This document shows, piece after piece, positions 862-62,616 of a stretch of 64,000 bases of DNA. Source of the stretch: Escherichia phage vB_Eco_F27. The notes under the pieces are model-generated. The model made no database searches. It was not told where the DNA came from and was given only the letters and a program-made list of their open reading frames with translations. Every line of letters begins with the position of its first letter. The first letter of the stretch is position 1. The translations under genes and the position numbers were made by a program. The stretch lies in sequence record OP870146.1. One strand, written 5' to 3'.

Positions 862-925
862 TTTTTGTTTCCTTGTTTGTTTTGATAGAGTAATTATACC
901 ATATTAATACTTAAGCGTAAACCGT

Positions 926-1186
926 TTAAGCTTTACCGCCAGAAATAATTCCGAAGTTGTTAAAATCGTATCCAATATCGTCAACATCTACTTTAGGACT
1001 TACTACAACATAAGCAATTTCACTACGTTTTGCATAGGTGTTTATTTCTTTACCATCACCACCTAAGAAAGAATACCCATTACGTTTTAATGAGCCAAAG
1101 TCTTCCGCATCACCAATGAAAGCTTTAACTTTAAATTTAGGACCTTTGGCATCTGCTTCAACGATAAATTCTTGATACATTTTCAT
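926..1186 (-). CDS. internal head protein-like (N-terminus MKMYQEFIVE), 86 aa
   Basis: ORF track; ATG 1184-1186 with AAGGAAAA SD; CTS-like N-terminus. Confidence 0.5.
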   Translation of the reverse strand: MKMYQEFIVEADAKGPKFKVKAFIGDAEDFGSLKRNGYSFLGGDGKEINTYAKRSEIAYVVVSPKVDVDDIGYDFNNFGIISGGKA

Positions 1187-1192
1187 TTTTCC

Positions 1193-1390
1193 TTAGTAAA
1201 TTGATTTACCATAGTATTTGTACCAAGTCGGACGTTGAGCAATTTTTTCATCTAAGCGTGCTTGATTTATCGCAATGGACGCTTCGGACGGGTCATAATT
1301 TCCTCCAAGTAGTTGATGAATGTATAGTATCAAAACCCTTGGAGGAAGTAAACAACTATTTTTCTGAAGCGCCTGAAATATATTTTTCAA
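1193..1390 (-). pseudogene. denV: remnant of denV (endonuclease V, pyrimidine dimer glycosylase): C-terminal ~33 codons only
   Basis: Frame translates ...[33 protein letters not shown], matching the T4 DenV C-terminus ([34 protein letters not shown], from memory); no ATG in frame; stops at 1400-1405 upstream; N-terminal 100 codons absent. Confidence 0.5.
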
Positions 1391-2841: not shown

Positions 2842-3329
2842 CTCAAATTCCTGCATTCGGTAATAAAACGTTCAACTTCATTATTCTTGGCCTTTATCTT
2901 GTCTTTACGTTCCTGTAAACTACTTTTAACAAGATTAATAATGATGCCTACAGTACCTCCACCAATAATACCACCAATAATACTTACAATAGTAGATGCT
3001 AATAAGATAGCGATAATATCTAGTACAGCAAAGGCACTTACTTTAGTACTAAAAAACCATACCGACGGTACAAATATAATCCATCCTGTTATCCATTGGC
3101 ACTTATTGAAAAACTTTTCAAGCTCAGCTTGAGTTGTTCGTATTACTTCATCGATAGGTTGATATCCATTAATGTATCTGTTCACAATAATACCTGCTGG
3201 CTGGTCGATTTTAAATTCTTGGCAAATATGTTTCACTAAGTAGGATGGACATCCTGTCCAATCTACCGAATAATACGAAATACCTTCGTTGCCATCGTCT
3301 ATATTAGACCAATATGTTTTGTTAATCAT
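2838..3329 (-). CDS. small membrane protein, C-terminal ERFITECR tail (ENFIKECR-tail family), 163 aa
   Basis: ORF track trimmed to ATG 3327-3329; hydrophobic segment AVLDIIAILLASTIVSIIGGIIGGGTVGIIINLV; conserved C-terminal tail. Confidence 0.5.
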   Translation of the reverse strand: MINKTYWSNIDDGNEGISYYSVDWTGCPSYLVKHICQEFKIDQPAGIIVNRYINGYQPIDEVIRTTQAELEKFFNKCQWITGWIIFVPSVWFFSTKVSAFAVLDIIAILLASTIVSIIGGIIGGGTVGIIINLVKSSLQERKDKIKAKNNEVERFITECRNLR

Positions 3330-4016: not shown

Positions 4017-4322
4017 TTATTTTCCTCGACATTCTTTAATGAAATTTTCTAGATTGGTAGATTCAATAGCTTTTTTACGAGCTTCAACATGTTCTTCTTC
4101 AGACAATTTACATTTATAATTGACCCAGACATTATGGTCGAAACTAGTCGTGGCATATAATAACAAAGCTCCGACGAATAATAAAAACGGTGATAAGAAT
4201 ATACAACCAGGCACACCATCCATACTGTAAGCCTTTTGTAATACTGCAACAGAAAGAGTTGCGTAAAAAAGTGATGCAAATATTGTTAAAAGACCAATTC
4301 GGTTGGTTTCGCCTAATTTCAT
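4017..4322 (-). CDS. small membrane protein, C-terminal ENFIKECRGK tail, 101 aa
   Basis: ORF track; ATG 4320-4322 with GAGGAG SD; early promoter immediately upstream; hydrophobic segments. Confidence 0.55.
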   Translation of the reverse strand: MKLGETNRIGLLTIFASLFYATLSVAVLQKAYSMDGVPGCIFLSPFLLFVGALLLYATTSFDHNVWVNYKCKLSEEEHVEARKKAIESTNLENFIKECRGK

Positions 4323-4350
4323 AATATTCTCCTCATGTTTTAATAGGACT

Positions 4351-4379
4351 ACTATAACATAGTCCTATAATTGTGTAAA
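4351..4379 (-). promoter_or_regulatory. early (sigma70-type) promoter: -35 TTTACA, 17-bp spacer, -10 TATAGT
   Basis: Minus-strand sense GTTTACAcaattATAGGACTAtgTTATAGTAGTCCTAT; 9-bp inverted repeat around the -10. Confidence 0.55.
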
Positions 4380-4392
4380 CAGTTTTGCGAAA

Positions 4393-5349
4393 TTATTTGA
4401 AAGGTTTTACCATATGGAAATTTTGTTTGAAACGTTTGACGTAATCGTCATGTCCTAAGCTTTGGTACATACTTACTACTTTGCTGTAGTTTTCCCAGGC
4501 GTATTCACGGAACCAACCGGAGGTGATGCTTGTGCAGACTTTTTCTAATGCCATCATGAAACTGGCTTCAGGGTTAATTTTAAAGTCATTAGGAATCTGA
4601 GAACGTTCTAATGCTAGTACACATGATTCTTCATATACACCGGCCAATTTGACCATTTCTGGTAACGATTCGAACTTCTCGCGTGAGGTCATGACTTCAG
4701 AACCGTCTTTCATATAAAATGTATAAGCCGGACGGTCTGTTAGTGCAATGGCTTCATGAATAGTATCATGGTCATATGTATAGATGTCATCTTTAAAGAA
4801 CGCACTTTTAGAAGTGTCAAGAACCGGGTGAGCATAGTTCAAGGTTTCTTTCTGGCGTTTCAGCATAATTTCAGTAAGTTCATCGTTCAGTGTAACACCT
4901 TTACCACGAAGATACTGAATATGGTTCATAGTCTTTAAAAAGAATGGATTATTTTTCTTGAAACGATGAGACATCTTAATTGCAAGACATATCTCAGGAG
5001 TTGCCCAGTAAAACCCGTTCAAACGGTCTTTAGTCAAATTTTTCTTGGCGTATTTTAAAAGGTCATAAGAAGACGTGAAATCTTCAGGAGTGAGTTCACC
5101 GACTAATTCACGGACATTAGTGATTGCCGGAACAATATATGCTTCAAAATGAGTTTCGCGTCCATTATGGAAGCATTTGAAAACTTGGACATCAGGGTTA
5201 TCTTGGTGAACATATACACCCATCATTTGATTTTTGAATGCATTCCAAGAACCTTGGTCCGCAATAAAGTCCCAATCGCTATTTTTGATAGCGCTAGAAT
5301 CAATAAGACCATGATAGTGAAGTGCACGAGAACCAATAACTAACATCAT
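4393..5349 (-). CDS. hypothetical early protein, 318 aa; possible nucleotidyltransferase-like N-terminus
   Basis: ORF track; ATG-ATG start with GAGGAAA SD; N-terminal LVIGSRALHYHGLIDSSAIKNSDWDF resembles a GS...DxD motif (weak). Confidence 0.5.
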   Translation of the reverse strand: MMLVIGSRALHYHGLIDSSAIKNSDWDFIADQGSWNAFKNQMMGVYVHQDNPDVQVFKCFHNGRETHFEAYIVPAITNVRELVGELTPEDFTSSYDLLKYAKKNLTKDRLNGFYWATPEICLAIKMSHRFKKNNPFFLKTMNHIQYLRGKGVTLNDELTEIMLKRQKETLNYAHPVLDTSKSAFFKDDIYTYDHDTIHEAIALTDRPAYTFYMKDGSEVMTSREKFESLPEMVKLAGVYEESCVLALERSQIPNDFKINPEASFMMALEKVCTSITSGWFREYAWENYSKVVSMYQSLGHDDYVKRFKQNFHMVKPFK

Positions 5350-5377: not shown

Positions 5378-5629
5378 TTAAATTTCACGACATGCGATAT
5401 TATATTCGTCCCAGAGGTCATCGTGTGAAGCCTCTACCAATGGAACGATTGTACCGTTTATGTCTTCATTATAAGGGCAAATTGTACAGTGCGCATCTTC
5501 GAATCGGATGCCTTTGTGTTCAGATTTTTTATAACGCATATCGAATATCTTTGCAAACTTTTCACGAGTAATGGTTTTAGCAACCACTTTGGTTCCGATA
5601 CTTTCGTAATAAATCATTGTGGACTCCAT
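5378..5629 (-). CDS. hypothetical protein, 83 aa
   Basis: ORF track; ATG 5627-5629; early promoter upstream. Confidence 0.45.
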   Translation of the reverse strand: MESTMIYYESIGTKVVAKTITREKFAKIFDMRYKKSEHKGIRFEDAHCTICPYNEDINGTIVPLVEASHDDLWDEYNIACREI

Positions 5630-5645
5630 TTAATTTGATAGGACT

Positions 5646-5674
5646 ACTATAACATAGCCCTATCTTGTTGTAAA
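5646..5674 (-). promoter_or_regulatory. early promoter (-35 TTTACA / -10 TATAGT)
   Basis: Same architecture and spacing as 4351-4379. Confidence 0.5.
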
Positions 5675-5679
5675 CTGTT

Positions 5680-5877
5680 TTAGCAAGAATAACTAGATGA
5701 TACCCAGCCTTGAACAGTGATACTATTATGGGATAATGAGATCGCGTCCTGGAGATTCAGACCTGCGTTATCTTCAATCCATAATGTAACTTCTTCGCGT
5801 TCTTCTGTTGCAATTTGGAACAGGTTTTCCAGAGCAGCTACTGCCGTACGTACAGCACAATCTAATTCACGAGACAT
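5680..5877 (-). CDS. small protein, tandem paralog A (C-terminal QGWVSSSYSC), 65 aa
   Basis: ATG 5875-5877 with AAGGAAAC SD overlapping the stop of the upstream paralog. Confidence 0.55.
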   Translation of the reverse strand: MSRELDCAVRTAVAALENLFQIATEEREEVTLWIEDNAGLNLQDAISLSHNSITVQGWVSSSYSC

Positions 5878-8488: not shown

Positions 8489-8716
8489 TTATTTTTTAAT
8501 CAAATTGACATAAAACTCGGCGTCTTCCGGGTGCATGCCTTCGCAGTATTCTTCAACCATGAACTTCTTAACAGCTTCATAAGGACCGCTCAGATTAAGC
8601 TCAGTTGTCCAGAACTTGGAATCTTGGACCGAATCGATACGAACTTCAGGGTGACGGTTGCGAATAACTTCTTCAGTGTATTCATAATCAACGACATCAA
8701 TACTAACTGTAGCCAT
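8489..8716 (-). CDS. hypothetical protein, 75 aa
   Basis: ORF track; ATG 8714-8716; early promoter upstream. Confidence 0.45.
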   Translation of the reverse strand: MATVSIDVVDYEYTEEVIRNRHPEVRIDSVQDSKFWTTELNLSGPYEAVKKFMVEEYCEGMHPEDAEFYVNLIKK

Positions 8717-8745
8717 TTTGTTTCTCCTCTTGATTTGATGTGATT

Positions 8746-8774
8746 ACTATAACATAAACGTACTTAGATGTAAA
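8746..8774 (-). promoter_or_regulatory. early promoter (-35 TTTACA / -10 TATAGT)
   Basis: ATTTACAtctaagtacgtttatgtTATAGT on the minus strand. Confidence 0.5.
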
Positions 8775-8928
8775 TTATTTCAACGTCACCTTTAGCGGCT
8801 TTATAACCTTCAGCCCAAGATACAACAGAGTTTTTATCCGAGGATTCAAATTCAGGCATTGGACTTTCACCAATATTCACACAGTATGTTTCTTCATTTT
8901 CATCGAACCAAATAATTAAAGTAGTCAT
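8764..8928 (-). CDS. small hypothetical protein, 54 aa (MTTLIIWFDENEETYCVNIGESPMPEFESSDKNSVVSWAEGYKAAKGDVEIIYI)
   Basis: Not in ORF track (under 60 aa); ATG 8926-8928 preceded by GAGGAG SD within a promoter-leader cassette identical to the one at 45127-45173. Confidence 0.4.
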   Translation of the reverse strand: MTTLIIWFDENEETYCVNIGESPMPEFESSDKNSVVSWAEGYKAAKGDVEIIYI

Positions 8929-8958
8929 TTTGTTTACTCCTCTGTAGTTGATAAGTCT

Positions 8959-8987
8959 ATAGTATCACCATCCTTGGTGCTTGTACA
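8959..8987 (-). promoter_or_regulatory. early promoter (-35 TGTACA / -10 TACTAT)
   Basis: 17-bp spacing; leader carries GAGGAG SD. Confidence 0.45.
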
Positions 8988-8996
8988 TCATTATTT

Positions 8997-9302
8997 TTAA
9001 TTTTTCCAACTTAACAACTTGTAGTGTCCTTCATTCATACGTGGTTTATCCCAAGAAATACTAATATATGATTCGCTGTCAATAGAAGTCGCCGGGTTTT
9101 TCTCTACCGTAAGACCTTCACTTTCCAGCCATTCAATAGTATTTGCGCATAAATCAGAAGAACACCTAATCGGAAACCGGCAAGATTTTTCACCTTTAGC
9201 TGCAGTGTTATACATCTTTTCTAAAATACGCTTTTGCACGTTTTTAAAAATAGTTTCAGCAGATTCTTCAGATTTTTTATTCAGTTCAGTGTAAAGACTC
9301 AT
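8997..9302 (-). CDS. hypothetical protein, 101 aa
   Basis: ORF track; ATG 9300-9302; leader cataatattctcctcatgtttt is identical to that of CDS 4017-4322. Confidence 0.5.
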   Translation of the reverse strand: MSLYTELNKKSEESAETIFKNVQKRILEKMYNTAAKGEKSCRFPIRCSSDLCANTIEWLESEGLTVEKNPATSIDSESYISISWDKPRMNEGHYKLLSWKN

Positions 9303-9330
9303 AATATTCTCCTCATGTTTTGATAGGTCT

Positions 9331-9358
9331 ATAGTAACACATCTAGGGAAGAAGTAAA
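9331..9358 (-). promoter_or_regulatory. early promoter (-35 TTTACT / -10 TACTAT)
   Basis: Same cassette family. Confidence 0.45.
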
Positions 9359-9411
9359 CAACTTTTTCAGTAAGTTATAAACCCCCTAATGGGGACCGAA
9401 GTCCCCATTCT

Positions 9412-10777: not shown

Positions 10778-10854
<77 letters not shown>

Positions 10855-10954: not shown

Positions 10955-11029
10955 TGGTGGCCCTGGCTGGTTTCGATCCAGCTACCTATCAGTTATGAGC
11001 TGACAGCTCTCCCATTGAGCTACAGGGCC
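10955..11029 (-). tRNA. tRNA with CAU anticodon (elongator Met, or Ile2 if lysidine-modified), 75 nt, CCA encoded
   Basis: Manual cloverleaf: acceptor GGCCCTG/CAGGGCC, D-arm GCTC-AATGGGA-GAGC, anticodon loop CTCATAA, T-arm GCTGG-ATCGAAA-CCAGC; ends resemble E. coli tRNA-Ile2. Confidence 0.85.
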
Positions 11030-11776: not shown

Positions 11777-11983
11777 TTACTCACCTTTTGCAATTTTATC
11801 CATAACGATAGCGATTAAGCCGATTAGAAATGCTACTACCAATGAGATAGAGTTTTCAGTTGTTGTCAGTAGTCCACAAATGAATCCTACAAACATCGAA
11901 AAACTAAAAGCCATTGAAGCAATTACTACAGCAACATTACGAATCAGTTCAGCGCGTTTCATTTTATTTCTCCATTTACTCAT
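11777..11983 (-). CDS. small membrane protein, 68 aa
   Basis: ATG 11981-11983; early promoter upstream; two hydrophobic segments. Confidence 0.45.
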   Translation of the reverse strand: MSKWRNKMKRAELIRNVAVVIASMAFSFSMFVGFICGLLTTTENSISLVVAFLIGLIAIVMDKIAKGE

Positions 11984-11999
11984 TTGTTTTGATAGGACT

Positions 12000-12028
12000 A
12001 CTATAACATATCCCTATAGGCTTGTATA
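12000..12028 (-). promoter_or_regulatory. early promoter (-35 TATACA / -10 TATAGT)
   Basis: Cassette family, 17-bp spacer. Confidence 0.45.
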
Positions 12029-12031
12029 CCT

Positions 12032-12295
12032 TTATTTCAAATATATTGCGTATTTTTTATAGCCACCAGGCTCGTGTCGAAGACCTTTATCATTCGCAAA
12101 ACGTTGAATGTTATTGAACTGATTTTCATCAAGTTCGGATGTGTCAAATATGAAAAAGTTTCGTTTGTTGCCAAGCGTGATATGCGGAGTTAAGTCAATG
12201 TTATACAAATTAAGAATATCAGCAATAACCTGATTGACCGCTTTGTTAATTTTCACACCAGACGATTCTGAGATGAATTCGTTGAAAGTTTTCAT
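12032..12295 (-). CDS. internal head protein-like (N-terminus MKTFNEFISE), 87 aa
   Basis: ORF track trimmed to ATG 12293-12295; CTS-like N-terminus. Confidence 0.45.
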   Translation of the reverse strand: MKTFNEFISESSGVKINKAVNQVIADILNLYNIDLTPHITLGNKRNFFIFDTSELDENQFNNIQRFANDKGLRHEPGGYKKYAIYLK

Positions 12296-12327
12296 TTTAG
12301 GTTCCATTTGGTTGTTTTGATAGGACT

Positions 12328-12356
12328 ACTATAACATAATCCTATCGTGTTGTAAA
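12328..12356 (-). promoter_or_regulatory. early promoter (-35 TTTACA / -10 TATAGT)
   Basis: ATTTACAacacgataggattatgtTATAGT. Confidence 0.5.
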
Positions 12357-12668
12357 TTATTTTATGCCTTTAGAAGAAATGGTGTTTTGGCGTTTGGTCC
12401 CTGTTTGTGAAAAATCGTGGTTATCGATTTGGTCGACTCGCATAACACCAAATGCAGATTTAATTTTAGCCTTTGAACCTTTTTTGATACTAATTATCAT
12501 ATAAGTATCATTTTTCTTATATTCGAAATTTGTTACTTCAACGCCTTGATTAGAAATTGACTTAATAATAGCATTAGCGTATTCATCATCTAACGGACCG
12601 GTGGTGTTAATAATAAAATTTTTATCGGCTTTAGTAGCTTCAGCGATAAACTCTTGATAAGTTTTCAT
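12357..12668 (-). CDS. internal head protein (N-terminus MKTYQEFIAE, identical to the T4 capsid targeting sequence), in the ipI map position, 103 aa
   Basis: ORF track trimmed to ATG 12666-12668; adjacent to 57B as ipI is in T4. Confidence 0.6.
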   Translation of the reverse strand: MKTYQEFIAEATKADKNFIINTTGPLDDEYANAIIKSISNQGVEVTNFEYKKNDTYMIISIKKGSKAKIKSAFGVMRVDQIDNHDFSQTGTKRQNTISSKGIK

Positions 12669-12704
12669 TTGTTTTTTCCGTTTGGTTTGAGATTTGATAG
12701 GATG

Positions 12705-12733
12705 ATAGTAACACACCATCATCCTTATGTAAA
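12705..12733 (-). promoter_or_regulatory. early promoter (-35 TTTACA / -10 TACTAT)
   Basis: Arms AGGATGAT / ATCATCCT keep the inverted repeat around the -10 through different bases. Confidence 0.5.
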
Positions 12734-12747
12734 CTGTTTTGTGAAAA

Positions 12748-13433
<686 letters not shown>

Positions 13434-24448: not shown

Positions 24449-25445
24449 TTCAAGTGTTATCTATCGTGCAATAGTTACATCAAAATTTAGAACAGAAAAA
24501 ATGCTGAATTTTTATAATTCAGTTGGGGATGGAGATGATAAGAACTCCATTTATATTACGTTTGGACGTTCAGAGCCTTGGGCGTCAAATGAAAATGAGG
24601 TGGGCTTCGCCCCACCTTATCCTACAGATTCTGTTCTTGGTGTTACTGATATGTGGACCCATATGATGGGTACCGTTAAAGTTTTACCTTCAATGTTAGA
24701 TTCTGTTATTCCTAGACGTGATTGGGGAGATGTGCGATATCCAGACCCTTACACGTTTAGAATTAATGATATAGTCGCATGTAATACTGCTCCGTACAAC
24801 GCGACAGAAGTTGGAGCCGGTTGGTTAATTTACCGTTGTTTAGATGTCCCTGACGTAGGGCTCTGTTCAATAGAATCTTTAGATAATAAAGATGAATGTC
24901 TTAAATTGGGTGGTAAATGGACTCCGTCTGTTCGTTCTATGTCTCCTCCTGAAGGCAGAGGCGATGCTAATGGGGTTATCGAAACCGGTGATGGATATAT
25001 TTGGGAATATCTTTACGAGATTCCTGCCGATGTGTCAATTAACCGTTGCACTAATGAATATCTTGTAGTTCCGTGGCCGGAAGAAATTAAAGAAGACCCC
25101 ACCCGTTGGGGATATGAAAATAACTTAACTTGGCAACAAGACGACTACGGCTTGATTTACCGTGTTAAAGCTAATACGATGCGGTTTAAAGCATATTTTG
25201 ATTCTGTTTATTTCCCTGAGGCAGCTTTGCCTGGTAACAAGGGTTTTAGACAGATATCAATTATCGCAAACCCGTTAGAAGCTAAGAAAAATCCAAATGA
25301 CCCTAATGTTAAAGCAGAAAAGGATTATTATGACCCTAGAGACCTGCAACGTCATTCTGGTGAAATGATTTATATGGAAAACCGACCACCTGTTATTATG
25401 GCAATGGACCAAACAGAAGAAATTAACATTTTGTTTATGTTTTAA
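24441..25445 (+). CDS. 8: gp8 baseplate wedge subunit, 334 aa
   Basis: Length and order as T4. Confidence 0.9.
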   Translation: MNDSSVIYRAIVTSKFRTEKMLNFYNSVGDGDDKNSIYITFGRSEPWASNENEVGFAPPYPTDSVLGVTDMWTHMMGTVKVLPSMLDSVIPRRDWGDVRYPDPYTFRINDIVACNTAPYNATEVGAGWLIYRCLDVPDVGLCSIESLDNKDECLKLGGKWTPSVRSMSPPEGRGDANGVIETGDGYIWEYLYEIPADVSINRCTNEYLVVPWPEEIKEDPTRWGYENNLTWQQDDYGLIYRVKANTMRFKAYFDSVYFPEAALPGNKGFRQISIIANPLEAKKNPNDPNVKAEKDYYDPRDLQRHSGEMIYMENRPPVIMAMDQTEEINILFMF

Positions 25446-25448
25446 TTA

Positions 25449-25472
25449 GGGAGCCTTCGGGCTCCCATTTTT
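25449..25472 (+). terminator. rho-independent terminator GGGAGCC-UUCG-GGCUCCC then UUUUU
   Basis: Directly after the gene 8 stop. Confidence 0.7.
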
Positions 25473-25477
25473 GTATC

Positions 25478-25485
25478 TATAAATA
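25478..25485 (+). promoter_or_regulatory. late promoter TATAAATA for gene 9
   Basis: Exact consensus. Confidence 0.6.
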
Positions 25486-36834: not shown

Positions 36835-38817
36835 ATGGCACTTCTCTCTCCGGGCGTTGAGCTCAAAGAAACTACCGTACAGAGTACTGTAGTTAATAAC
36901 TCCACTGGTACTGCTGCCCTGGCTGGAAAATTCCAATGGGGACCTGCATTCCAGATTAAACAAATCACTGATGAAGTTGCATTGGTTGATATGTTTGGTA
37001 CTCCTAATACAGATACAGCAGATTATTTCATGTCTGCTATGAACTTCCTTCAATATGGTAATGACCTTCGTGTTGTACGCGCAGTTGATCGTGATACTGC
37101 TAAGAACTCATCTCCTGTAGCAGGCAATATTGAATTCACAATCTCTGCTGCTGGTAGTAACTATGCAGTTGGTGATAAAATTATCGTTAAGTATTTGACC
37201 GAAACTGTTGAAGCAGATGGTTATGTCACTTCAGTTGATGTCGATGGTAAAATTCTTAACATTTATATCCCAACCGGTAAAATTATTGCTCGTGCAAAAG
37301 AAATTAATGAATATCCGGCATTGGGTTCTAACTGGACCGCCGAAGTTGCCAGTTCTTCTTCTGGACTCTCTGGCGTTATTACAATTGGTTCTATCGTAAC
37401 CGATTCAGGTATTCTGTTAACTGAAGTTGAAACTTCTGAAGAAGCTATTACTTCTCTAACTTTCCAAGAATCTATTAAAAAATATGGTGTCCCGGGCGTA
37501 GTTGCTCTTTATCCTGGTGAACTTGGCGACCAGCTCGAAATTGAAATCGTATCTAAAGCAGACTATGACAAAGGTGCTTCAGCCCAGTTAAAAATTTATC
37601 CTGATGGTGGTACTCGTGCATCTACGGCTAAAGCAATCTTTGGGTATGGCCCACAAACTGATGACCAATATGCAATTATCGTTCGTCGTAACGATGCTGT
37701 AGTTCAGAGCGTAATTCTTTCTACTAAACGCGGTGAACGCGATATTTATGGTAGTAATATCTTTATTGATGATTTCTTTGCTAAAGGCGCAAGCAATTAT
37801 ATTTTCGCTACTGCACAAGGTTGGCCAAAAGGTTTCTCTGGCGTAATCAAACTGGGTGGTGGCTTATCATCTAATGAAACGGTTGACGCTGGTGATTTAA
37901 TGGAAGCTTGGGATTTGTTTGCTGACCGCGAATCTGTTAATGCGCAGTTGTTTATTGCCGGTTCTTGTGCAGGTGAATCTTTAGAAGTTGCTTCTACAGT
38001 TCAGAAACATGTTGTAGCAATTGGTGATTCTCGCCAAGATTGCTTGGTTCTTTGCTCACCACCACGTGCAACTATAGTCGGTATTCCTGTTAATCGTGCA
38101 GTTGATAATCTGGTTGATTGGCGTACTGCGTCAGGAACTTACACTGATAATAACTTTAATGTAAGTTCTACTTACGCGGCTATTGATGGTAACTATAAAT
38201 ATCAATATGACAAATATAATGATGTGAATCGTTGGGTTCCATTAGCTGCTGATATTGCTGGTCTTTGTGCTCGCACAGACAATATTTCTCAGCCTTGGAT
38301 GTCTCCTGCCGGTTATAACCGTGGACAAATTCTTAACGTTATTAAGCTTGCAATTGAAACTCGCCAAGCGCAGCGTGATCGTTTGTACCAGGAAGCTATT
38401 AACCCTGTTACTGGTACAGGTGGTGATGGGTATGTTCTGTACGGTGATAAAACTGCCACTTCTGTTCCTTCACCATTTGACCGTATTAACGTTCGTCGTT
38501 TGTTCAATATGGTTAAAACGAACATTGGTTCAGCATCTAAATATCGTCTGTTTGAATTGAACAACGCATTTACCCGTTCTTCTTTCCGTACAGAGACTTC
38601 TCAATATCTACAGGGTATTAAAGCTCTCGGTGGTGTATATAACTTTAAAGTTGTTTGTGATACTACCAATAACACCCCAGCAGTTATCGACCGTAATGAA
38701 TTTGTAGCTACTTTCTACTTACAACCTGCCCGCTCGATAAATTATATTACGTTGAACTTTGTAGCAACAGCAACTGGTGCCGATTTCGACGAACTGATTG
38801 GTGCTGTAGGTAGTTAA
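36835..38817 (+). CDS. 18: gp18 tail sheath protein, 660 aa
   Basis: Length and order. Confidence 0.92.
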   Translation: MALLSPGVELKETTVQSTVVNNSTGTAALAGKFQWGPAFQIKQITDEVALVDMFGTPNTDTADYFMSAMNFLQYGNDLRVVRAVDRDTAKNSSPVAGNIEFTISAAGSNYAVGDKIIVKYLTETVEADGYVTSVDVDGKILNIYIPTGKIIARAKEINEYPALGSNWTAEVASSSSGLSGVITIGSIVTDSGILLTEVETSEEAITSLTFQESIKKYGVPGVVALYPGELGDQLEIEIVSKADYDKGASAQLKIYPDGGTRASTAKAIFGYGPQTDDQYAIIVRRNDAVVQSVILSTKRGERDIYGSNIFIDDFFAKGASNYIFATAQGWPKGFSGVIKLGGGLSSNETVDAGDLMEAWDLFADRESVNAQLFIAGSCAGESLEVASTVQKHVVAIGDSRQDCLVLCSPPRATIVGIPVNRAVDNLVDWRTASGTYTDNNFNVSSTYAAIDGNYKYQYDKYNDVNRWVPLAADIAGLCARTDNISQPWMSPAGYNRGQILNVIKLAIETRQAQRDRLYQEAINPVTGTGGDGYVLYGDKTATSVPSPFDRINVRRLFNMVKTNIGSASKYRLFELNNAFTRSSFRTETSQYLQGIKALGGVYNFKVVCDTTNNTPAVIDRNEFVATFYLQPARSINYITLNFVATATGADFDELIGAVGS

Positions 38818-38849
38818 TAAGACGCCTGATGGGCTATTTCGGTAGCCCA

Positions 38850-38857
38850 TATAAATA
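38850..38857 (+). promoter_or_regulatory. late promoter TATAAATA for gene 19, preceded by hairpin 38829-38850
   Basis: Exact consensus; 8-bp stem ATGGGCTA/TAGCCCAT just upstream. Confidence 0.55.
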
Positions 38858-38929
38858 TACTATATCGTTTAAAAATTAATTCTATGGGCATCCGGTTAAT
38901 CCTAAGCCCATATTACTACAGAGGCTAAT

Positions 38930-39421
38930 ATGTTTGTAGATGACGTAACTCGCGCCTTCGAATCTGGTGATTTCGCTCGCCCTAACCTGTTCGAAGTAGA
39001 AATCTCTTATCTTGGGCAAAACTTTAGCTTCCAGTGTCGTGCTACGGCTCTTCCTGCTGCGATCGTTGAAAAGGTTCCTGTTTCTTATATGAACCGTAAA
39101 ATTAACGTGGCCGGTGATCGTACATTCGATGATTGGACTATTACAGTAATGAACGATGATGCTCATAGCATTCGTCAGAAATTTGTTGATTGGCAAGGTA
39201 TTGCAGCAGGACAAGGTAATGAAATTACCGGTGGTAAACCTGCTGAATATAAAAAGTCTGCTATCGTTCGTCAATTTGCTCGTGATGCTAAAACGGTCAC
39301 TAAAGAAGTTGAAATTGTCGGCTTGTGGCCTACTAACGTTGGCGAAGTATCTCTTGATTGGGATTCGAATAACGAGATTGAAACGTTCGAAGTAACTCTT
39401 GCTCTTGATTGGTGGGAATAA
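38930..39421 (+). CDS. 19: gp19 tail tube protein, 163 aa
   Basis: Same length as T4 gp19. Confidence 0.92.
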   Translation: MFVDDVTRAFESGDFARPNLFEVEISYLGQNFSFQCRATALPAAIVEKVPVSYMNRKINVAGDRTFDDWTITVMNDDAHSIRQKFVDWQGIAAGQGNEITGGKPAEYKKSAIVRQFARDAKTVTKEVEIVGLWPTNVGEVSLDWDSNNEIETFEVTLALDWWE

Positions 39422-43242: not shown

Positions 43243-44811
43243 ATGACTACTATCAAAACTAAAGCTCAGCTCGTAGACAAATGGAAAGAACTGCTGGAAG
43301 GTGAAGGCCTGCCGGAAATCGCTAATAGCAAGCAGGCTATTATCGCTAAAATCTTCGAAAACCAGGAAAAAGATTTCGAAGTATCCCCTGAATATAAAGA
43401 CGAGAAAATCGCTCAGGCATTTGGTTCTTTCTTGACCGAAGCTGAAATTGGTGGTGACCATGGTTATAATGCTCAGAACATCGCAGCAGGTCAAACCTCT
43501 GGTGCAGTAACCCAAATTGGGCCGGCAGTTATGGGTATGGTTCGTCGTGCTATTCCTAATCTGATCGCTTTTGATATTTGTGGTGTTCAGCCTATGAACA
43601 GCCCGACCGGTCAGGTATTTGCTCTCCGTGCAGTATATGGTAAAGACCCTATCGCTGCTGGCGCTAAAGAAGCTTTCCATCCGATGTATGCTCCAGATGC
43701 GATGTTCTCTGGTCAGGGTGCTGCTAAGAAATTCCCAGCTCTGGCTGCTGACACTACTACTGTTGTAGGTGATATCTATACTCACTTCTTCCAAGAAACT
43801 GGTACTGTATATCTGCAAGCTTCTGCTGTCGTAACACTTGATTCTGGTGCAACTGACGCATCTAAATTAGATGCCGAAGTTAAGAAACAAATGGAAGCTG
43901 GTGCACTGGTAGAAATCGCTGAAGGTATGGCTACTTCTATCGCTGAACTCCAGGAAGGTTTCAACGGTTCTACCGATAACCCATGGAATGAAATGGGCTT
44001 CCGTATCGATAAACAAGTTATCGAAGCTAAATCTCGCCAGCTGAAAGCTGCTTACTCTATCGAATTAGCACAAGACCTCCGTGCAGTACACGGTATGGAT
44101 GCTGATGCTGAACTGAGCGGTATTCTGGCTACAGAAATTATGCTAGAAATCAACCGTGAAGTTGTTGATTGGATTAACTACTCTGCACAGGTTGGTAAAT
44201 CTGGTATGACCCTGACTCCGGGTTCTAAAGCTGGTGTATTTGACTTCCAGGACCCGATTGATATCCGTGGTGCTCGTTGGGCCGGTGAAAGCTTTAAATC
44301 TCTGTTGTTCCAGATTGATAAAGAAGCAGTTGAAATTGCTCGTCAAACCGGTCGTGGTGAAGGTAACTTCATTATCGCTTCCCGTAACGTAGTTAACGTA
44401 CTGGCTTCAGTTGATACTGGTATTTCTTACGCTGCACAGGGCCTGGCTTCTGGTTTTAATACCGACACTACTAAGTCTGTATTTGCCGGTGTACTTGGTG
44501 GTAAATACCGCGTATACATCGACCAGTATGCTAAACAGGATTACTTCACCGTTGGTTACAAAGGCGCTAACGAAATGGATGCAGGTATTTACTATGCTCC
44601 TTACGTTGCACTTACCCCACTGCGTGGTTCCGATCCTAAGAACTTCCAGCCGGTAATGGGCTTTAAAACTCGTTACGGTATCGGTGTTAACCCGTTTGCT
44701 GAAAGTTCCCTGCAGGCTCCAGGTGCTCGCATCCAGTCCGGTATGCCGTCTATCCTGAACAGCCTTGGTAAGAACGCTTACTTCCGCCGTGTATATGTAA
44801 AAGGCATCTAA
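43243..44811 (+). CDS. 23: gp23 major capsid protein, 522 aa
   Basis: Length and order; high-expression codon usage. Confidence 0.93.
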   Translation: MTTIKTKAQLVDKWKELLEGEGLPEIANSKQAIIAKIFENQEKDFEVSPEYKDEKIAQAFGSFLTEAEIGGDHGYNAQNIAAGQTSGAVTQIGPAVMGMVRRAIPNLIAFDICGVQPMNSPTGQVFALRAVYGKDPIAAGAKEAFHPMYAPDAMFSGQGAAKKFPALAADTTTVVGDIYTHFFQETGTVYLQASAVVTLDSGATDASKLDAEVKKQMEAGALVEIAEGMATSIAELQEGFNGSTDNPWNEMGFRIDKQVIEAKSRQLKAAYSIELAQDLRAVHGMDADAELSGILATEIMLEINREVVDWINYSAQVGKSGMTLTPGSKAGVFDFQDPIDIRGARWAGESFKSLLFQIDKEAVEIARQTGRGEGNFIIASRNVVNVLASVDTGISYAAQGLASGFNTDTTKSVFAGVLGGKYRVYIDQYAKQDYFTVGYKGANEMDAGIYYAPYVALTPLRGSDPKNFQPVMGFKTRYGIGVNPFAESSLQAPGARIQSGMPSILNSLGKNAYFRRVYVKGI

Positions 44812-44835
44812 TCTTAATTGATTAAATCTTATTTT

Positions 44836-44859
44836 GGGAGACTTCGGTCTCCCATTTTT
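44836..44859 (+). terminator. rho-independent terminator GGGAGAC-UUCG-GUCUCCC then AUUUUU, after gene 23
   Basis: Perfect 7-bp stem with UUCG tetraloop. Confidence 0.7.
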
Positions 44860-44863
44860 GGTT

Positions 44864-45133
44864 TTATTTCTGTGCAATTTCGATGTAAGTTTTCAAAATA
44901 TTTTGCCAATTAGGCATACCTTCTTGGACATATGCCGGAGAACCATCTTTGTTTTTGAATGATGCAAGTTTATCAGTGGCCCAATAACCTTTAGCTCGAG
45001 CTTCAGAATCAACTTTCATCCATACTTTGTTGAAGGCATTACCATTAACTTTTGCACCATATTTTTCTACTAACTTAACCGCTTCAGCTTCCAGAACTTT
45101 TAAAGTATCTCGTAAGAAACGTGCTTTAGTCAT
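44864..45133 (-). CDS. hypothetical protein, 89 aa, antisense insert between genes 23 and 24 (T4 segD position)
   Basis: ATG 45131-45133; driven by an early promoter-leader cassette identical over 47 nt to the one at 8922-8968. Confidence 0.5.
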   Translation of the reverse strand: MTKARFLRDTLKVLEAEAVKLVEKYGAKVNGNAFNKVWMKVDSEARAKGYWATDKLASFKNKDGSPAYVQEGMPNWQNILKTYIEIAQK

Positions 45134-45163
45134 TTTGTTTACTCCTCTGTAGTTGATAAGTCT

Positions 45164-45192
45164 ATAGTATCACATACCAAATACGTTGTAAA
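45164..45192 (-). promoter_or_regulatory. early promoter (-35 TTTACA / -10 TACTAT)
   Basis: 17-bp spacer; GAGGAG SD in leader. Confidence 0.5.
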
Positions 45193-45199
45193 CAATCTT

Positions 45200-45207
45200 T
45201 ATAAATA
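45200..45207 (+). promoter_or_regulatory. late promoter TATAAATA for gene 24
   Basis: Exact consensus 27 nt upstream of ATG. Confidence 0.6.
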
Positions 45208-45234: not shown

Positions 45235-46518
45235 ATGAGTAAAATCCAAAAATTATTGCGTGAATCTACAACGTCTACTAGCAACTCAATCGGTCGCCCA
45301 AATCTCGTTGCTTTGACTCGCGCTACGACTAAATTAATATATTCTGACATTGTAGCAACACAAAGAACTAATCAACCTGTTGCTGCTTTTTATGGTATCA
45401 AATATCTTAACCCAGACAACGAATTAACATTTAAAACTGGTGCTACTTATGCAGGCGAAGCTGGATATGTAGACCGAGAAAAAATTACCGAACTCACAGA
45501 AGAATCAAAAGTCACATTAAATAAAGGCGATTTTTTCAAATATAATAATATCGTCTATAAAGTGTTAGAAGATGCACCATTTGCAGATATTCAAGAAAGT
45601 GATCTAGAATTAGCTCTTCAGATTGCGGTCGTTCATTTAAAGGTACGGTTATTTTCGGATGCAGCGGTAACAAGCAAATTTGAAAGCTCTGGTAGCGAAA
45701 TTTCTGATGCAAGATTCCAGATTAATAAATGGCAAACTTCAGTCAAATCTCGTAAACTTAAAACCGGCCTCACGGTTGAATTAGCGCAAGATTTGGAAGC
45801 AAATGGATTTGATGCCCCTAACTTCTTAGAAGATTTGCTTGCTACTGAAATGGCTGATGAAATTAATAAAGATATTCTTCAGTCTTTAATTACTGTATCG
45901 AAACGTTATAAAGTTACTGGAATTACTGACACTGGATTTATTGACTTGAGCTATGCGTCTGCTCCAGAAGCAGGCCGTTCGTTATACCGAATGGTATGTG
46001 AAATGGTTTCGCATATCCAAAAAGAGTCAACTTATACTGCAACGTTTTGCGTAGCTTCAGCTCGTGCAGCTGCTATTCTTGCTGCTTCTGGTTGGTTAAA
46101 ACATAAGCCAGAAGATGACAAGTATCTTTCACAAAATGCTTATGGATTCTTGGCAAATGGATTACCTCTTTACTGCGATACCAACAGTCCGTTAGATTAT
46201 GTTATTGTGGGTGTTGTAGAAAATATCGGTGAAAAAGAAATTGTAGGGTCCATCTTTTATGCTCCATACACTGAAGGAGTAGATTTAGATGACCCGGAAC
46301 ATGTTGGTGCTTTTAAAGTTGTAGTTGATCCAGAAAGCTTGCAACCGTCTATCGGATTATTGGTTAGATATGCTTTATCAGCAAATCCTTACACAGTAGC
46401 AAAAGACGAAAAAGAAGCGAGAATAATTGATGGCGGGGACATGGATAAAATGGCAGGACGTTCAGACTTGTCTGTTTTACTCGGTGTTAAATTGCCTAAA
46501 ATTATTATAGATGAATAA
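45235..46518 (+). CDS. 24: gp24 head vertex protein, 427 aa
   Basis: Same length as T4 gp24; gp23-like fold expected. Confidence 0.9.
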   Translation: MSKIQKLLRESTTSTSNSIGRPNLVALTRATTKLIYSDIVATQRTNQPVAAFYGIKYLNPDNELTFKTGATYAGEAGYVDREKITELTEESKVTLNKGDFFKYNNIVYKVLEDAPFADIQESDLELALQIAVVHLKVRLFSDAAVTSKFESSGSEISDARFQINKWQTSVKSRKLKTGLTVELAQDLEANGFDAPNFLEDLLATEMADEINKDILQSLITVSKRYKVTGITDTGFIDLSYASAPEAGRSLYRMVCEMVSHIQKESTYTATFCVASARAAAILAASGWLKHKPEDDKYLSQNAYGFLANGLPLYCDTNSPLDYVIVGVVENIGEKEIVGSIFYAPYTEGVDLDDPEHVGAFKVVVDPESLQPSIGLLVRYALSANPYTVAKDEKEARIIDGGDMDKMAGRSDLSVLLGVKLPKIIIDE

Positions 46519-60470: not shown

Positions 60471-60499
60471 AACGTTTTCCTCATGTTGTTGATGGGATG

Positions 60500-60528
60500 A
60501 TAGTATCACACATCCATGTGTTTGTAAA
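60500..60528 (-). promoter_or_regulatory. early promoter (-35 TTTACA / -10 TACTAT)
   Basis: AGTTTACAaacacatggatgtgtgaTACTAT on the minus strand. Confidence 0.5.
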
Positions 60529-62616
60529 CTATCCTTGGACAAATTTAAACGGAACTGATTCTAAATCCATTAAAGATGCTAACAATTTCAAACCTTTAGG
60601 TGCACTAGTTTTTTCTACAAATGAGGAGAACGATACCGGCTCAACTGATTCGATTTCACCCGTCATAGCAACCACCTCGCCTGTTTCCATGAGAACATCA
60701 CCATCGTAAATGACAGCTTCATCTAACTGGTCTGAGGACATGACTTCAGCTTGAATAAATTTAAGGTTGGATTCTAAACCTGCACCAGTGTCAGATGACG
60801 CATCTGTAATTTTATTTATCTGCAAGAGAATGCCTCTAGGCAAAATAATTTCTTGCTCATTAGGGTGATTACTCAACTGTCCCGGATAAATCACGTTAAC
60901 TTTATGGGCGCCATCAATAGCCCATCCAACGTTAACACGGATTTGTTCTGGTGCATGCATAGCTGTTCTTACTTGACTAGGAGAAATAGTAACACCTTCG
61001 TCATTATTGTCAATGTTAAGCTCTTTGCGAACTTCTTCAGGAGCAAGTCCAAGGGCAACGTTCTCTTTAAACCCACCGAAAATAATAGGAGCTAGTGAAG
61101 TGGAAACATAGTTTCTGAAATAGAATACCTTATTTTTAACCATTGCTTCGTAAATAGGCATTCTGATAGACTGAGCTCTATATAACGTTAGTCCTTCAGG
61201 TAAACGGTCTCCATTTAAAAACGCCGAATCAAGACCATCAATAGCGCGTTTAACTTCATCTTCATCTGCAACATCGTAAAAATCTGGTTTATAACGACCT
61301 AACAACATATTATTGATATCGGTATACGCAGAAGAGGCATATTCACGAATAGCTCGTTTTTCAGCAACAGAGTATTGTTTAGGGTCCCGATTCATTGTTA
61401 TATTAAAGGTGCCTCTAGCCGATTCTCGTGCATAAGTATACATCACATTAGACAAGAACGCTGATTTACGTTGTTTCCAAGTTTTTTCAGATACTTCAGC
61501 TAAAACATCGTCGGCCAGTTGGAAATTATCACGTCTAAAATCTTCAAACCATTCGTCTTTAATAGAGTCTGCAATTTCATTTGCAGCTTCAACAAAAGCA
61601 GCTAATGCTTTAACAGATGTTGTTTTTTCAGTTTTAATTTTCTTAGCAAACTTTTCTAAAGTTGGCTTAATAACACTACCATAAGAAACTTCATCAGCAA
61701 ATCTAAAGGATTCATCAATACGATTATAAATCTTATTTTCGATATCAGCAACTAAAGTGCCTTTTGCTGTGGATGATGCTTGGGCCAGTACGATTTCATA
61801 TGCTTCAGGAAGTAATTCGGCTGTAGCTGGGCCGCTAACTTCTTTAGCAGAATTTTCGTATTTCTGGAATAACTCACCTTCTTGGCGGTCAGCTTCTAAA
61901 GATTGACTTGCTGCAATAGCACGACGAGAAATTTTAGTACGAGCAATAACAGGCTTATCTTTACGTTTTTCTTCTACAGCAGCAATAGAACCAGCGATAG
62001 CCGTTTCTTTGGTGACCTTTTCGCCGGTCTTTTTACTCACATAAACTTCGCCAACATCAGAATCTACTTTCGCGTACAACTCTGTGTTAATGTTAGGGAT
62101 GCCTTTAATATCTTCAATGTTGGCATTTTTACGAACCATCATCACATAGGTGTGTTTACCTGTGAATTGATACATTGCCGACAATACTTTAAAACGACCA
62201 CTGGTTTTAGTAGAAACTAAACGAGCAAGAAGAGTTTGAAGCTGCTGTCCGCGTCCTTTCAATTTCTTGGTAGGGAATCGGAACAGAACCGCATCCATAC
62301 GAAGAGCTTTAACCTGTTCATACACTGTATTGAAAATGGTGTTGATTGCATCAATAGGAGCAGGACCAAGGCCATTTTTCAATTCAGCTAGATTACCCTT
62401 TTCAGACAGACTCATAATAACAACATGAGCGTATTTGTCGCCAAGTTTAACTTGTTTTACAGCGTCGCCTTCGGAAAGGTAAGAGAATAAACGAACTACA
62501 ATATTTGTATCGATATCACCAATTTTCCAGACTTGTGGAACTTTAGCTTTAGGGTTCAAATTGACGACAGGAAGACTGCCTTCAGATTCAAACACTTCAT
62601 TTAATTGTTCAGACAT
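60529..62616 (-). CDS. alt: Alt ADP-ribosyltransferase (head-packaged, injected), 695 aa
   Basis: Size and position between 54 and 30 as in T4; AAGGAAA SD; family call from synteny. Confidence 0.75.
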   Translation of the reverse strand: MSEQLNEVFESEGSLPVVNLNPKAKVPQVWKIGDIDTNIVVRLFSYLSEGDAVKQVKLGDKYAHVVIMSLSEKGNLAELKNGLGPAPIDAINTIFNTVYEQVKALRMDAVLFRFPTKKLKGRGQQLQTLLARLVSTKTSGRFKVLSAMYQFTGKHTYVMMVRKNANIEDIKGIPNINTELYAKVDSDVGEVYVSKKTGEKVTKETAIAGSIAAVEEKRKDKPVIARTKISRRAIAASQSLEADRQEGELFQKYENSAKEVSGPATAELLPEAYEIVLAQASSTAKGTLVADIENKIYNRIDESFRFADEVSYGSVIKPTLEKFAKKIKTEKTTSVKALAAFVEAANEIADSIKDEWFEDFRRDNFQLADDVLAEVSEKTWKQRKSAFLSNVMYTYARESARGTFNITMNRDPKQYSVAEKRAIREYASSAYTDINNMLLGRYKPDFYDVADEDEVKRAIDGLDSAFLNGDRLPEGLTLYRAQSIRMPIYEAMVKNKVFYFRNYVSTSLAPIIFGGFKENVALGLAPEEVRKELNIDNNDEGVTISPSQVRTAMHAPEQIRVNVGWAIDGAHKVNVIYPGQLSNHPNEQEIILPRGILLQINKITDASSDTGAGLESNLKFIQAEVMSSDQLDEAVIYDGDVLMETGEVVAMTGEIESVEPVSFSSFVEKTSAPKGLKLLASLMDLESVPFKFVQG

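Follow-up and report, generated by a model that had tools for sequence, protein, structure and literature searches.

How did two unrelated small genes, 36 kb apart in the genome of a T-even phage, come to open with exactly the same 47 bp, and is the shared segment a mobile cassette, a co-regulated leader, or a patch copied from one promoter into another? The question is raised by a 64,000-nt stretch of Escherichia phage vB_Eco_F27 (OP870146.1), referred to below as the window. The window belongs to an RB69/JS09-like (Mosigvirus) T-even coliphage, the closest record being vB_EcoM_NBG1 (99.2%). RB69 is the long-standing reference genome for this phage group.

The repeat, its two genes, and the cassette family

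The plus-strand segments 8922-8968 and 45127-45173 were found to be identical at 47 of 47 nucleotides. An earlier note on this DNA had reported this exact duplication, which proved to be real: a search allowing up to three mismatches located no sites in the window besides the two copies, and none of 100 dinucleotide-preserving shuffles contained a match. The minus-strand reading offered in that note was also borne out, as the repeat (GTGATACTATAGACTTATCAACTACAGAGGAGTAAACAAAATGACTA) covers an extended -10 element (TGaTACTAT), a leader with a GAGGAG Shine-Dalgarno (SD) sequence, and the ATG ACT A (Met-Thr) of two unrelated genes. The -10 hexamer TACTAT occupies 8959-8964 in copy 1 and 45164-45169 in copy 2, preceded by TG in both, and the SD lies at 8937-8942 and 45142-45147, 8 nt ahead of the ATG. 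The edges of the repeat are sharp, with g at 8921 against t at 45126, and c at 8969 against a at 45174. The features of the two loci are as follows.

8764..8928, minus strand: 54-aa gene (RB69 ORF145c; PHROG 5461, function unknown)
8922..8968, minus strand: copy 1, with extended -10, predicted start at ~8952, 24-nt leader with GAGGAG, and ATG ACT A of the 54-aa gene
8982..8987, minus strand: weak -35-like hexamer belonging to copy 1, TGTACA, lying beyond the repeat and separated from TACTAT by 17 nt
44835..44854, plus strand: terminator-like hairpin and T-run after gene 23, adjoining the stop codon of the 89-aa gene
44864..45133, minus strand: 89-aa gene (PHROG 6003, function unknown; RB69 ORF188c/189c, broken)
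45127..45173, minus strand: copy 2, at the head of the 89-aa gene between genes 23 and 24, with a predicted transcription start at ~45157
45187..45192, minus strand: -35 of copy 2, TTTACA, lying beyond the repeat; 17 nt separate it from TACTAT, which is preceded by TG
45200..45207, plus strand: late promoter of gene 24, TATAAATA, abutting the -35 of the divergent early promoter (RB69 Pl:109573)

BLASTP gave no alignment at all between the 54-aa and 89-aa proteins, and Pfam searches with both returned nothing significant, just a sub-threshold hit to DUF4859. The 89-aa protein likewise had no named PHROG match and carried no endonuclease mark. Identity between the two loci ends 7 nt into the coding sequence, beyond which the sequences are unrelated; this limit, together with the lack of detectable protein similarity, ruled out a duplicated gene start with later divergence.

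The two copies lie within a larger family. About 12 related early promoter-leader cassettes were found in the window, all on the minus strand, with ten at 0.9-12.8 kb and single members at 45.2 kb and 60.5 kb. They share a layout consisting of an A/T-rich tract, a GTTTACA (-35), a spacer of ~17 nt, TG-n-TAYWAT, TATCAAAAC, a short leader, GGAG, and ATG. Members other than the two copies are listed below.

876-934, minus strand: family member
1309-1367, minus strand: denV promoter-leader, of the TGATACTAT...ATCAACTAC subtype
4334-4393 and 5629-5688, minus strand: family members with 9-10 bp hairpins enclosing the -10, PeSL-like
8714..8787, minus strand: frd.3 promoter and leader cassette, the next downstream of copy 1 (frd.3 gene at 8489-8716)
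9299..9372, minus strand: cassette before an e.8-like gene (8997-9302), 77% identical to the 47-mer
11983-12042, 12311-12370 and 12688-12755, minus strand: family members
60485..60542, minus strand: isolated family member of the TGATACTAT subtype

All 66 cassette pairs in the window were compared from the extended -10 as far as codon 2. The 47-mer pair was 100% identical, the second-best pair was 84% identical, and the median identity was 69%; the longest exact run in any pair other than the 47-mer pair was 26 nt. Comparable similarity was found elsewhere, with cassettes 83-87% identical to the 47-mer preceding T4 denV, JS98 alc, regB, and RB69 frd.3. The leader of the cassette at 9299-9372 matches that at 4319-4341 exactly over 23 nt, and, by eye, the same cassette matches the JS98 23-24 cassette exactly over ~32 nt. 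Since the family is so tightly constrained, with cassettes of 83-87% identity and exact runs of 23-32 nt elsewhere, the 47-mer is best seen as the far end of a graded series and not as something set apart. Its limits are nonetheless clear. The 35 nt directly upstream of the two 47-mers are just 60% identical, which is the ordinary family background. With complete identity inside, background similarity upstream, and unrelated coding sequence downstream, the 47-mer is best described as a discrete, sharply bounded patch within two otherwise ordinary members of the cassette family.

The closest relative of the 47-mer outside Mosigvirus is the T4 denV promoter-leader (TGATACTATAGACCTATCAACTACAG...AAAATGACT), which is 87% identical over 45 nt and likewise belongs to the TGATAC / CAACTACAG subtype. 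One discriminator base and the SD-to-ATG spacer set it apart, and it precedes another gene in another genus. The denV cassettes of RB69 and of the window are less like the 47-mer than that of T4.

Both copies have the sequence features of a T4-type early promoter, GTTTAC (-35) and TAnnnT (-10), and both are predicted promoters. In a promoter scan, copy 2 (TTTACA-17-TACTAT plus TG) gave 9 of 12 consensus matches, and copy 1 (TGTACA-17-TACTAT plus TG) gave 8 of 12, under the scan threshold. The upstream DNA is AT-rich at both. Consensus promoter hits in these regions were no commoner than in shuffled sequence, so that the scan alone proves nothing. The promoter entries for RB69 include two early promoters, Pe:72567 and Pe:109605, that correspond to the two copies, and a late promoter for gene 24, Pl:109573, that overlaps the Pe:109605 site (Nolan et al. 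2006, PMC1524935). The two early promoters are on the minus strand in the same register, each 34 nt upstream of the start of the 47-mer. In each, an A-rich UP region accompanies a GTTTAC-like -35 and a TAnnnT -10; as given there, the two predictions rest on a hidden Markov model (HMM), not on experiment. They stand as entries of a list, and no mention of a shared identical 47-nt segment was noticed alongside these entries (PMC1524935). No MotA-box-like TGCTT at about -30 was noticed by eye in the cassette sequences.

With transcription starting, as predicted, ~7 nt past the -10, AUCAACUACAGAGGAGUAAACAAAAUGACUA would open both mRNAs. Over their first 60 nt, the predicted mRNAs fold no better than shuffled sequences, which fits an open initiation region. 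The leader contains a GGAG and an A-rich tract that may be relevant to RegB; by-eye comparison showed that the downstream GGAGTAAACAA fits four of the seven extended consensus positions (GGAGRAYARAA). No match to the RB69 RegA SELEX motif was found in the leader. An Rfam scan of the window returned only two tRNAs, and nothing at the cassettes.

The two loci in related phages

A megablast search with the 47-mer matched 141 phage records at 225 places, with at most two places per listed record. All of the 141 are named as Escherichia or Shigella phages or as Mosigvirus, and every one that was fetched has an RB69-like backbone. From these counts, ~84 genomes apparently hold both near-perfect copies. 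Direct reading showed the two copies together in RB69, JS09, mogra, and F31, and a single copy was read in NBG1 and in G2469, with unchanged limits throughout. Across 50,697 phage records and a metagenome scan, the exact 47-mer was found in just two gene contexts; a metagenome contig of 167.6 kb carries both copies, and the metagenome matches show only these same contexts. The exact 47-mer had no hits in IMG/VR, a collection that is uninformative here. An assembly artefact from collapsed or duplicated reads, which the earlier note had named as one outcome that would undo its claim, has virtually no probability. Both copies recur with the same limits in many independently sequenced genomes, including RB69, and in the metagenome contig, and each copy lies in unique flanking sequence that is collinear with that of relatives.

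Copy 2 lies between gp23 (43243-44811) and gp24 (45235-46518), and comparison with T4 confirmed that this is the gap in which T4 carries segD. The 89-aa gene shares with segD the intergenic slot, the minus-strand orientation, and the constant late-promoter/-35 block upstream. It differs in that its protein lacks endonuclease marks, and nothing ties the 47-mer to homing. The suggestion that the copy 2 gene is an arrival comparable to segD did not survive comparison of the gap among relatives. Homologues of the 89-aa protein (30-38% aa identity) are present in the 23-24 gap of JS98 (Dhakavirus), VR7 (Gaprivervirus), G28, GEP001, and JK45, and in JK45 a JS98-type member of the family is found together with segD. 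A recent, segD-like insertion of the 89-aa gene was thereby ruled out, and the family is an old resident of the gap. Since it occupies the gap across lineages, the repeat would mark a replacement of the promoter-leader and not the insertion of a gene. The constant block of the gap consists of the gene 24 SD, the late promoter TATAAATA, and the abutting divergent -35, and is also present in T4 with segD; everything downstream of the divergent -35 varies by lineage. The JS98, G28, GEP001, and JK45 loci accordingly have the late-promoter/-35 block in common with the window, and have another -10 and leader.

Copy 1 is located in the e.6 / frd.3 / e.8 block beside tRNA genes, which is a hyperplastic early region. 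The 54-aa gene is also found in Tequatrovirus (T2, PST, G28, Lutter, and GEP001), at 87-98% aa identity, with a different leader. In the T2, G28, Lutter, and GEP001 loci, the -35/spacer (GTACAAACACCAAGGACGGTG) is ~88% identical and the coding sequence 87-92% identical to the window at the nucleotide level, whereas the stretch from TATCAA to the ATG is longer and different. The -35 region of copy 1 matches the 54-aa locus of T2, G28, and Lutter. At both copies, then, the -35 and UP halves lie outside the repeat, and each is common to the corresponding T2 or JS98 locus. The description of the repeat as a duplicated promoter-leader-start cassette thus holds for the half from the -10 to the start codon; the -35 and UP halves are site-specific.

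The identity of the two copies goes back at least to the ancestor from which the sampled genomes descend, and they have since drifted independently. Copy 2 of RB69 has three substitutions, and its gene is split (ORF188c/189c); the 89-aa gene is broken in mogra as well. Copy 1 of F31 has four clustered substitutions beside an intact gene, and no second copy of this clustered variant, which would be a sign of further conversion, was present in the phage sequences compared. JK45 has only copy 1, with one substitution, its 23-24 gap being occupied by the JS98-type gene and leader and segD, and NicPhage has only copy 2. No genome was found in which both copies carry the same derived change; JK45 and NHEP36, in which the best copy is not a perfect match, were checked as candidates for ongoing concerted evolution, which was rejected, as JK45 has copy 1 alone and the NHEP36 variant is a deletion hybrid. 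The flanks of the copies are 97-100% identical between genomes. Since the flanks are as well conserved as the repeat, the persistence of identity needs no special mechanism.

Several relatives have junctions within the cassettes. In NHEP36, a 212-bp deletion has removed the 54-aa gene, and frd.3 is preceded by a hybrid cassette, which follows the 47-mer through CTACAGAGGAG and then continues with the frd.3 sequence AAACAAAATGGCT. The crossover lies within AGAGGAG(T)AAACAAAATG, an SD-ATG segment common to the adjacent 54-aa and frd.3 cassettes; the partner of the 47-mer was the AGAGGAG-AAACAAAATG segment of the frd.3 cassette (8714-8730 in the window). In NicPhage, the UP element, -35, and spacer of the 54-aa cassette run as far as the -10, where another leader, followed by frd.3, takes over. 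The 54-aa cassettes of mogra and JK45 have a different gene as their upstream neighbour, and similarity is lost at the A/T-rich end of the cassette. By their positions, these junctions are those predicted by the PeSL model, which rests on the ability of T4-type phages to recombine at short patches of homology, of less than 50 bp (Singer et al. 1982, as cited in PMC2839356).

Origin of the shared patch

At both loci the 47-mer is flanked by site-specific DNA on either side, which gives it the look of a gene conversion or double crossover. It was probably copied from one early-promoter cassette into another, as a short-homology patch comprising the portion from core promoter to start codon. The 47 bp would represent approximately -16 to +31 of a T-even early expression cassette, and the copying event would predate the radiation of the sampled Mosigvirus phages. 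The phage recombination machinery is likely to have made the patch, through a short gene conversion or double crossover, and the partial similarity among cassettes (median ~70%, with exact runs of 10-26 nt) would have provided the substrate. The recipient would have retained its own UP element, -35, spacer, and coding sequence, and gained the extended -10, start, 24-nt unstructured leader, GAGGAG ribosome-binding site, ATG, and second codon of the donor. Both genes would then be transcribed by unmodified host sigma-70 RNA polymerase directly after infection, and their mRNAs would have identical 5′ ends and near-identical translation-initiation regions, including a GGAG that may be cut by RegB. 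The identity of the copies would persist owing to the youth of the genus, as seen in the flanks, and not to ongoing homogenisation, and the cassette still acts as a crossover point at which neighbouring small genes are removed or swapped.

It is unlikely that the 47-mer, or a longer PeSL, is instead a self-contained mobile cassette that reached the two sites by separate insertions from a third source, which could be of the denV type and possibly a mini-circle of PeSL and ORF carrying each gene. The T4 denV promoter-leader (TGATACTATAGACCTATCAACTACAG) is indeed the nearest relative outside the genus, and lateral mobility of the 54-aa gene is seen in its near-identity between Mosigvirus and Tequatrovirus backbones, in the cassettes on either side of it, and in its absence from NHEP36 and NicPhage. 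The leader of copy 1 is also unlike the T2-type allele, though the flanks are conserved. However, the 89-aa family is old in the 23-24 gap, in at least four lineages, and the match of the -35/UP halves to the corresponding loci elsewhere implies that whole cassettes were not inserted at either site. The restriction of the exact 47-mer to two gene contexts also argues against a mobile unit, and no exact third-party donor was found.

Two further explanations were weighed against copying. Maintenance of the identity by selection or by ongoing conversion, for co-regulation through a RegA-like or RegB/S1 operator or for matched expression, is very unlikely, even though most sampled genomes keep both copies perfect, the leader recalls RegB sites, and the three changes in copy 2 of RB69 arose only where the gene was already broken. 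The equal conservation of the flanking non-repeat DNA makes an extra constraint unneeded, each copy occurs without the other in viable phages (NicPhage, JK45, and NHEP36), and copy 1 of F31 was not re-homogenised, although the gene beside it is intact. In addition, the match to the extended RegB consensus is partial, the RB69 RegA SELEX motif is unmatched, and other leaders of the family differ freely. Accidental identity of two members of a strongly constrained promoter family has to be considered, as unrelated genes in different genera have cassettes that are 83-87% identical, with exact runs of 23-32 nt, but such convergence is extremely unlikely. If sites are treated as independent, the probability of 47 matches in 47 is ~3e-8 at a per-site identity of 69% and still only ~3e-4 at 84%, or <0.02 when corrected for 66 pairs. 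Moreover, the copies agree at every non-consensus state (GATAC, GACTT, CTACAG, TAAACAAA, and codon 2), and identity falls abruptly to background at both ends; the pairwise distribution effectively refutes chance.

If the patch was copied from one cassette into the other, the direction from the e-region copy to the 23-24 copy is slightly favoured. Copy 1 is preferred as the donor because GACTTATC, the leading G, TACAGA, and ATGACTA, which the 47-mer shares with the T2-type 54-aa locus, are not found in the JS98-type 23-24 cassette. The presence of GACTTATC in the e.8-like cassette of JK45 counts against this assignment. Copy 1 could itself have been overwritten, as its leader diverges strongly between Mosigvirus and T2 despite conserved flanks, and, given the 87% identity of the T4 denV cassette, one copy or both could have come from a third donor outside the phages sampled. 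Among the Mosigvirus-type alleles of the 89-aa gene that were compared, none was an intermediate, pre-conversion form, and all were at least 90% identical. Differences in the 54-aa gene, per 159 nt, number ~14 between the window and T2, 16 between T2 and GEP001, and ~20 between the window and GEP001, distances that do not root the gene tree and so give the transfer no polarity.

Relation to PeSLs and significance

PeSLs (promoter-early stem-loop cassettes) of T4-type phages consist of an AT-rich tract, -35, -10, SD, and start codon preceding small genes (Arbiol et al. 2010, PMC2839356; Comeau et al. 2014, PMC4122927), and the T-even promoter type is TTTACW-N17-TAYWAT (PMC2839356; PMC4122927). 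The cassettes described here have the same layout, from AT-rich tract to start codon, before small genes of unknown function, and their -35 and -10 fit the T-even type. Both copies have a predicted sigma-70-like promoter with an AT-rich tract, and GAGGAG precedes the ATG of the 54-aa and 89-aa genes at their 3′ ends. As with PeSLs, hyperplastic DNA holds most of them, and a plastic, non-essential gene of the structural core occasionally has one beside it: the e-tRNA-ip early region contains ten of the 12 members of the family, and copy 2 lies in the variable 23-24 gap. The cassettes likewise lie at indel or replacement junctions between close relatives (NHEP36, NicPhage, mogra, and JK45).

The stable stem-loop that defines a PeSL, situated in or beside the promoter and able to work as a terminator or attenuator, was, however, absent or insignificant on folding of the two 47-mer cassettes. 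Copy 1 has only a 5-bp hairpin, CACCA-N4-TGGTG, in the spacer at 8966-8979, largely outside the repeat (whole-fold z = -1.13), and copy 2 has no stable hairpin (fold z = -0.70). Hairpins enclosing the -10 were found in siblings at 12311-12370 and 12688-12755, the two members of their trio that were folded, the strongest sibling hairpin being the 11-bp stem at 12688-12755 (z = -2.46). The shared 47-mer differs from a whole PeSL in comprising only the -10-to-start half, and the transfer would be one of sequence between two resident promoters, not movement of an ORF. A viable mini-circle deletion between the copies is impossible, as essential genes lie in the 36 kb between them; the exchange between neighbouring cassettes that yields encapsidated PeSL mini-circles would therefore concern only copy 1 and the frd.3 cassette. 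With the stem-loop lacking and only half of the element shared, the repeat is PeSL-like and not a PeSL. The resemblance to mobile PeSL-type cassettes drawn in the earlier note thus extends to the mode of working, the cassette family, and the gene-loss junctions, and stops at the stem-loop. RB69 is named in neither PeSL paper (PMC2839356; PMC4122927), and JS98 is absent from the later one (PMC4122927).

These findings do not define a new type of element or a new mechanism, but fall within the known way in which T-even phages shuffle genes, and both promoters were already listed for RB69 in 2006 (PMC1524935). What is new is the recognition of the identical patch, of its sharp limits, and of the natural deletion junctions in sister genomes. 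It is quite unlikely that the -16 to +31 segment is a discrete unit that is repeatedly copied between resident early promoters, with a functional importance in the identity of the copies. If so, patch copying would rewire the expression of small accessory genes without moving them, giving, for example, matched dosage of the 54-aa and 89-aa proteins or a shared leader-binding regulator, and the exchange of such regulatory patches would form a layer finer than the ORF-level PeSL shuffling described so far. The repeat provides a clean, genus-wide example, in RB69-like phages, of the PeSL prediction that early promoter-leader cassettes serve as short homology patches, and it places side by side what would be a promoter-to-promoter transfer with the genes in place and a gene loss in a sister genome that is mapped to the nucleotide. 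For annotation and engineering, the 5′ ends of these small early genes may be treated as interchangeable modules, and short repeats like the 47-mer as likely points of rearrangement.

Rearrangements at the first copy of the cassette

In phage NHEP36, a natural 212-bp deletion (37782-37860 of the fetched stretch L019, in its own coordinates; compare 8714-8968 in the window) removes the 54-aa gene that is opened by copy 1 of the 47-mer. The crossover was located inside AGAGGAG/AAACAAAATG, which is common to the 47-mer cassette and the frd.3 cassette, the next early promoter-leader downstream. The product is a hybrid promoter-leader in front of frd.3, which is predicted to drive this gene. Copy 1 of F31 (around 3116-3160 of its stretch, L010) contains four clustered changes, TACTATGGGTTTATCAACAAC in place of TACTATAGACTTATCAACTAC, which look like another small patch replacement; a search of 41.5 kb of F31 sequence yielded no donor for this variant.

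Other leaders, the denV remnant and RNA elements

A second leader of 23 identical nucleotides, AAAACATGAGGAGAATATTATGA, occurs on the minus strand at 4319-4341 and 9299-9321, and precedes two different genes (4017-4322 and 8997-9302). Comparison by eye of the e.8-like cassette with the cassette of the JS98 gene between genes 23 and 24 suggested an exact match of ~32 nt.

The denV (endonuclease V) gene is present in the window as a remnant with an internal deletion (1193-1296, minus strand). The promoter-leader and three initial codons, ATG ACC CGT (Met-Thr-Arg), are kept and followed by an early stop, and the final 32 codons are retained, but out of frame. RB69 denV is intact (138 aa) at the matching position, flanked by two internal-head-protein genes.

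1309-1367, minus strand: denV promoter

The sole Rfam matches in the window were two tRNA genes; relatives have a corresponding pair, annotated as tRNA-Arg and tRNA-Met.

10781-10854, minus strand: tRNA gene (Rfam match)
10958-11029, minus strand: tRNA gene (Rfam match)

Two GGGAGnCTTCGGnCTCCC-type terminator hairpins (25431-25480 and 44818-44867), one of which follows gene 23, share 78% identity over 50 nt, and hairpins of this type may represent a conserved terminator family.

The gap between genes 23 and 24

In the block at 45187-45207, the late promoter of gene 24 and the -35 of the divergent early promoter are arranged back to back.

45200-45207, plus strand: gene 24 late promoter, TATAAATA
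45187-45192, minus strand: -35 of the divergent early promoter

This block is kept in T4, JS98, VR7, G28, JK45, and Mosigvirus. Downstream of the -35 the gap is all variable, containing segD, the T4 homing endonuclease gene, or a member of the 89-aa gene family, of which three types occur. In RB69 the 89-aa gene exists as two short ORFs (ORF188c/189c; 43292-43532 of stretch L006), and the promoter copy there carries 3 substitutions; in mogra the gene is split likewise (1654-1922 of stretch L008). The gene is therefore dispensable, at least in the laboratory.

The JK45 gap (38392-39321 of stretch L016) holds a segD homologue together with an 89-aa-family gene and leader, the latter two of JS98 type, on a backbone that is Mosigvirus-like within the fetched region. 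The joint presence of these three elements suggests that the entire gap module was swapped, possibly by homing-associated co-conversion.
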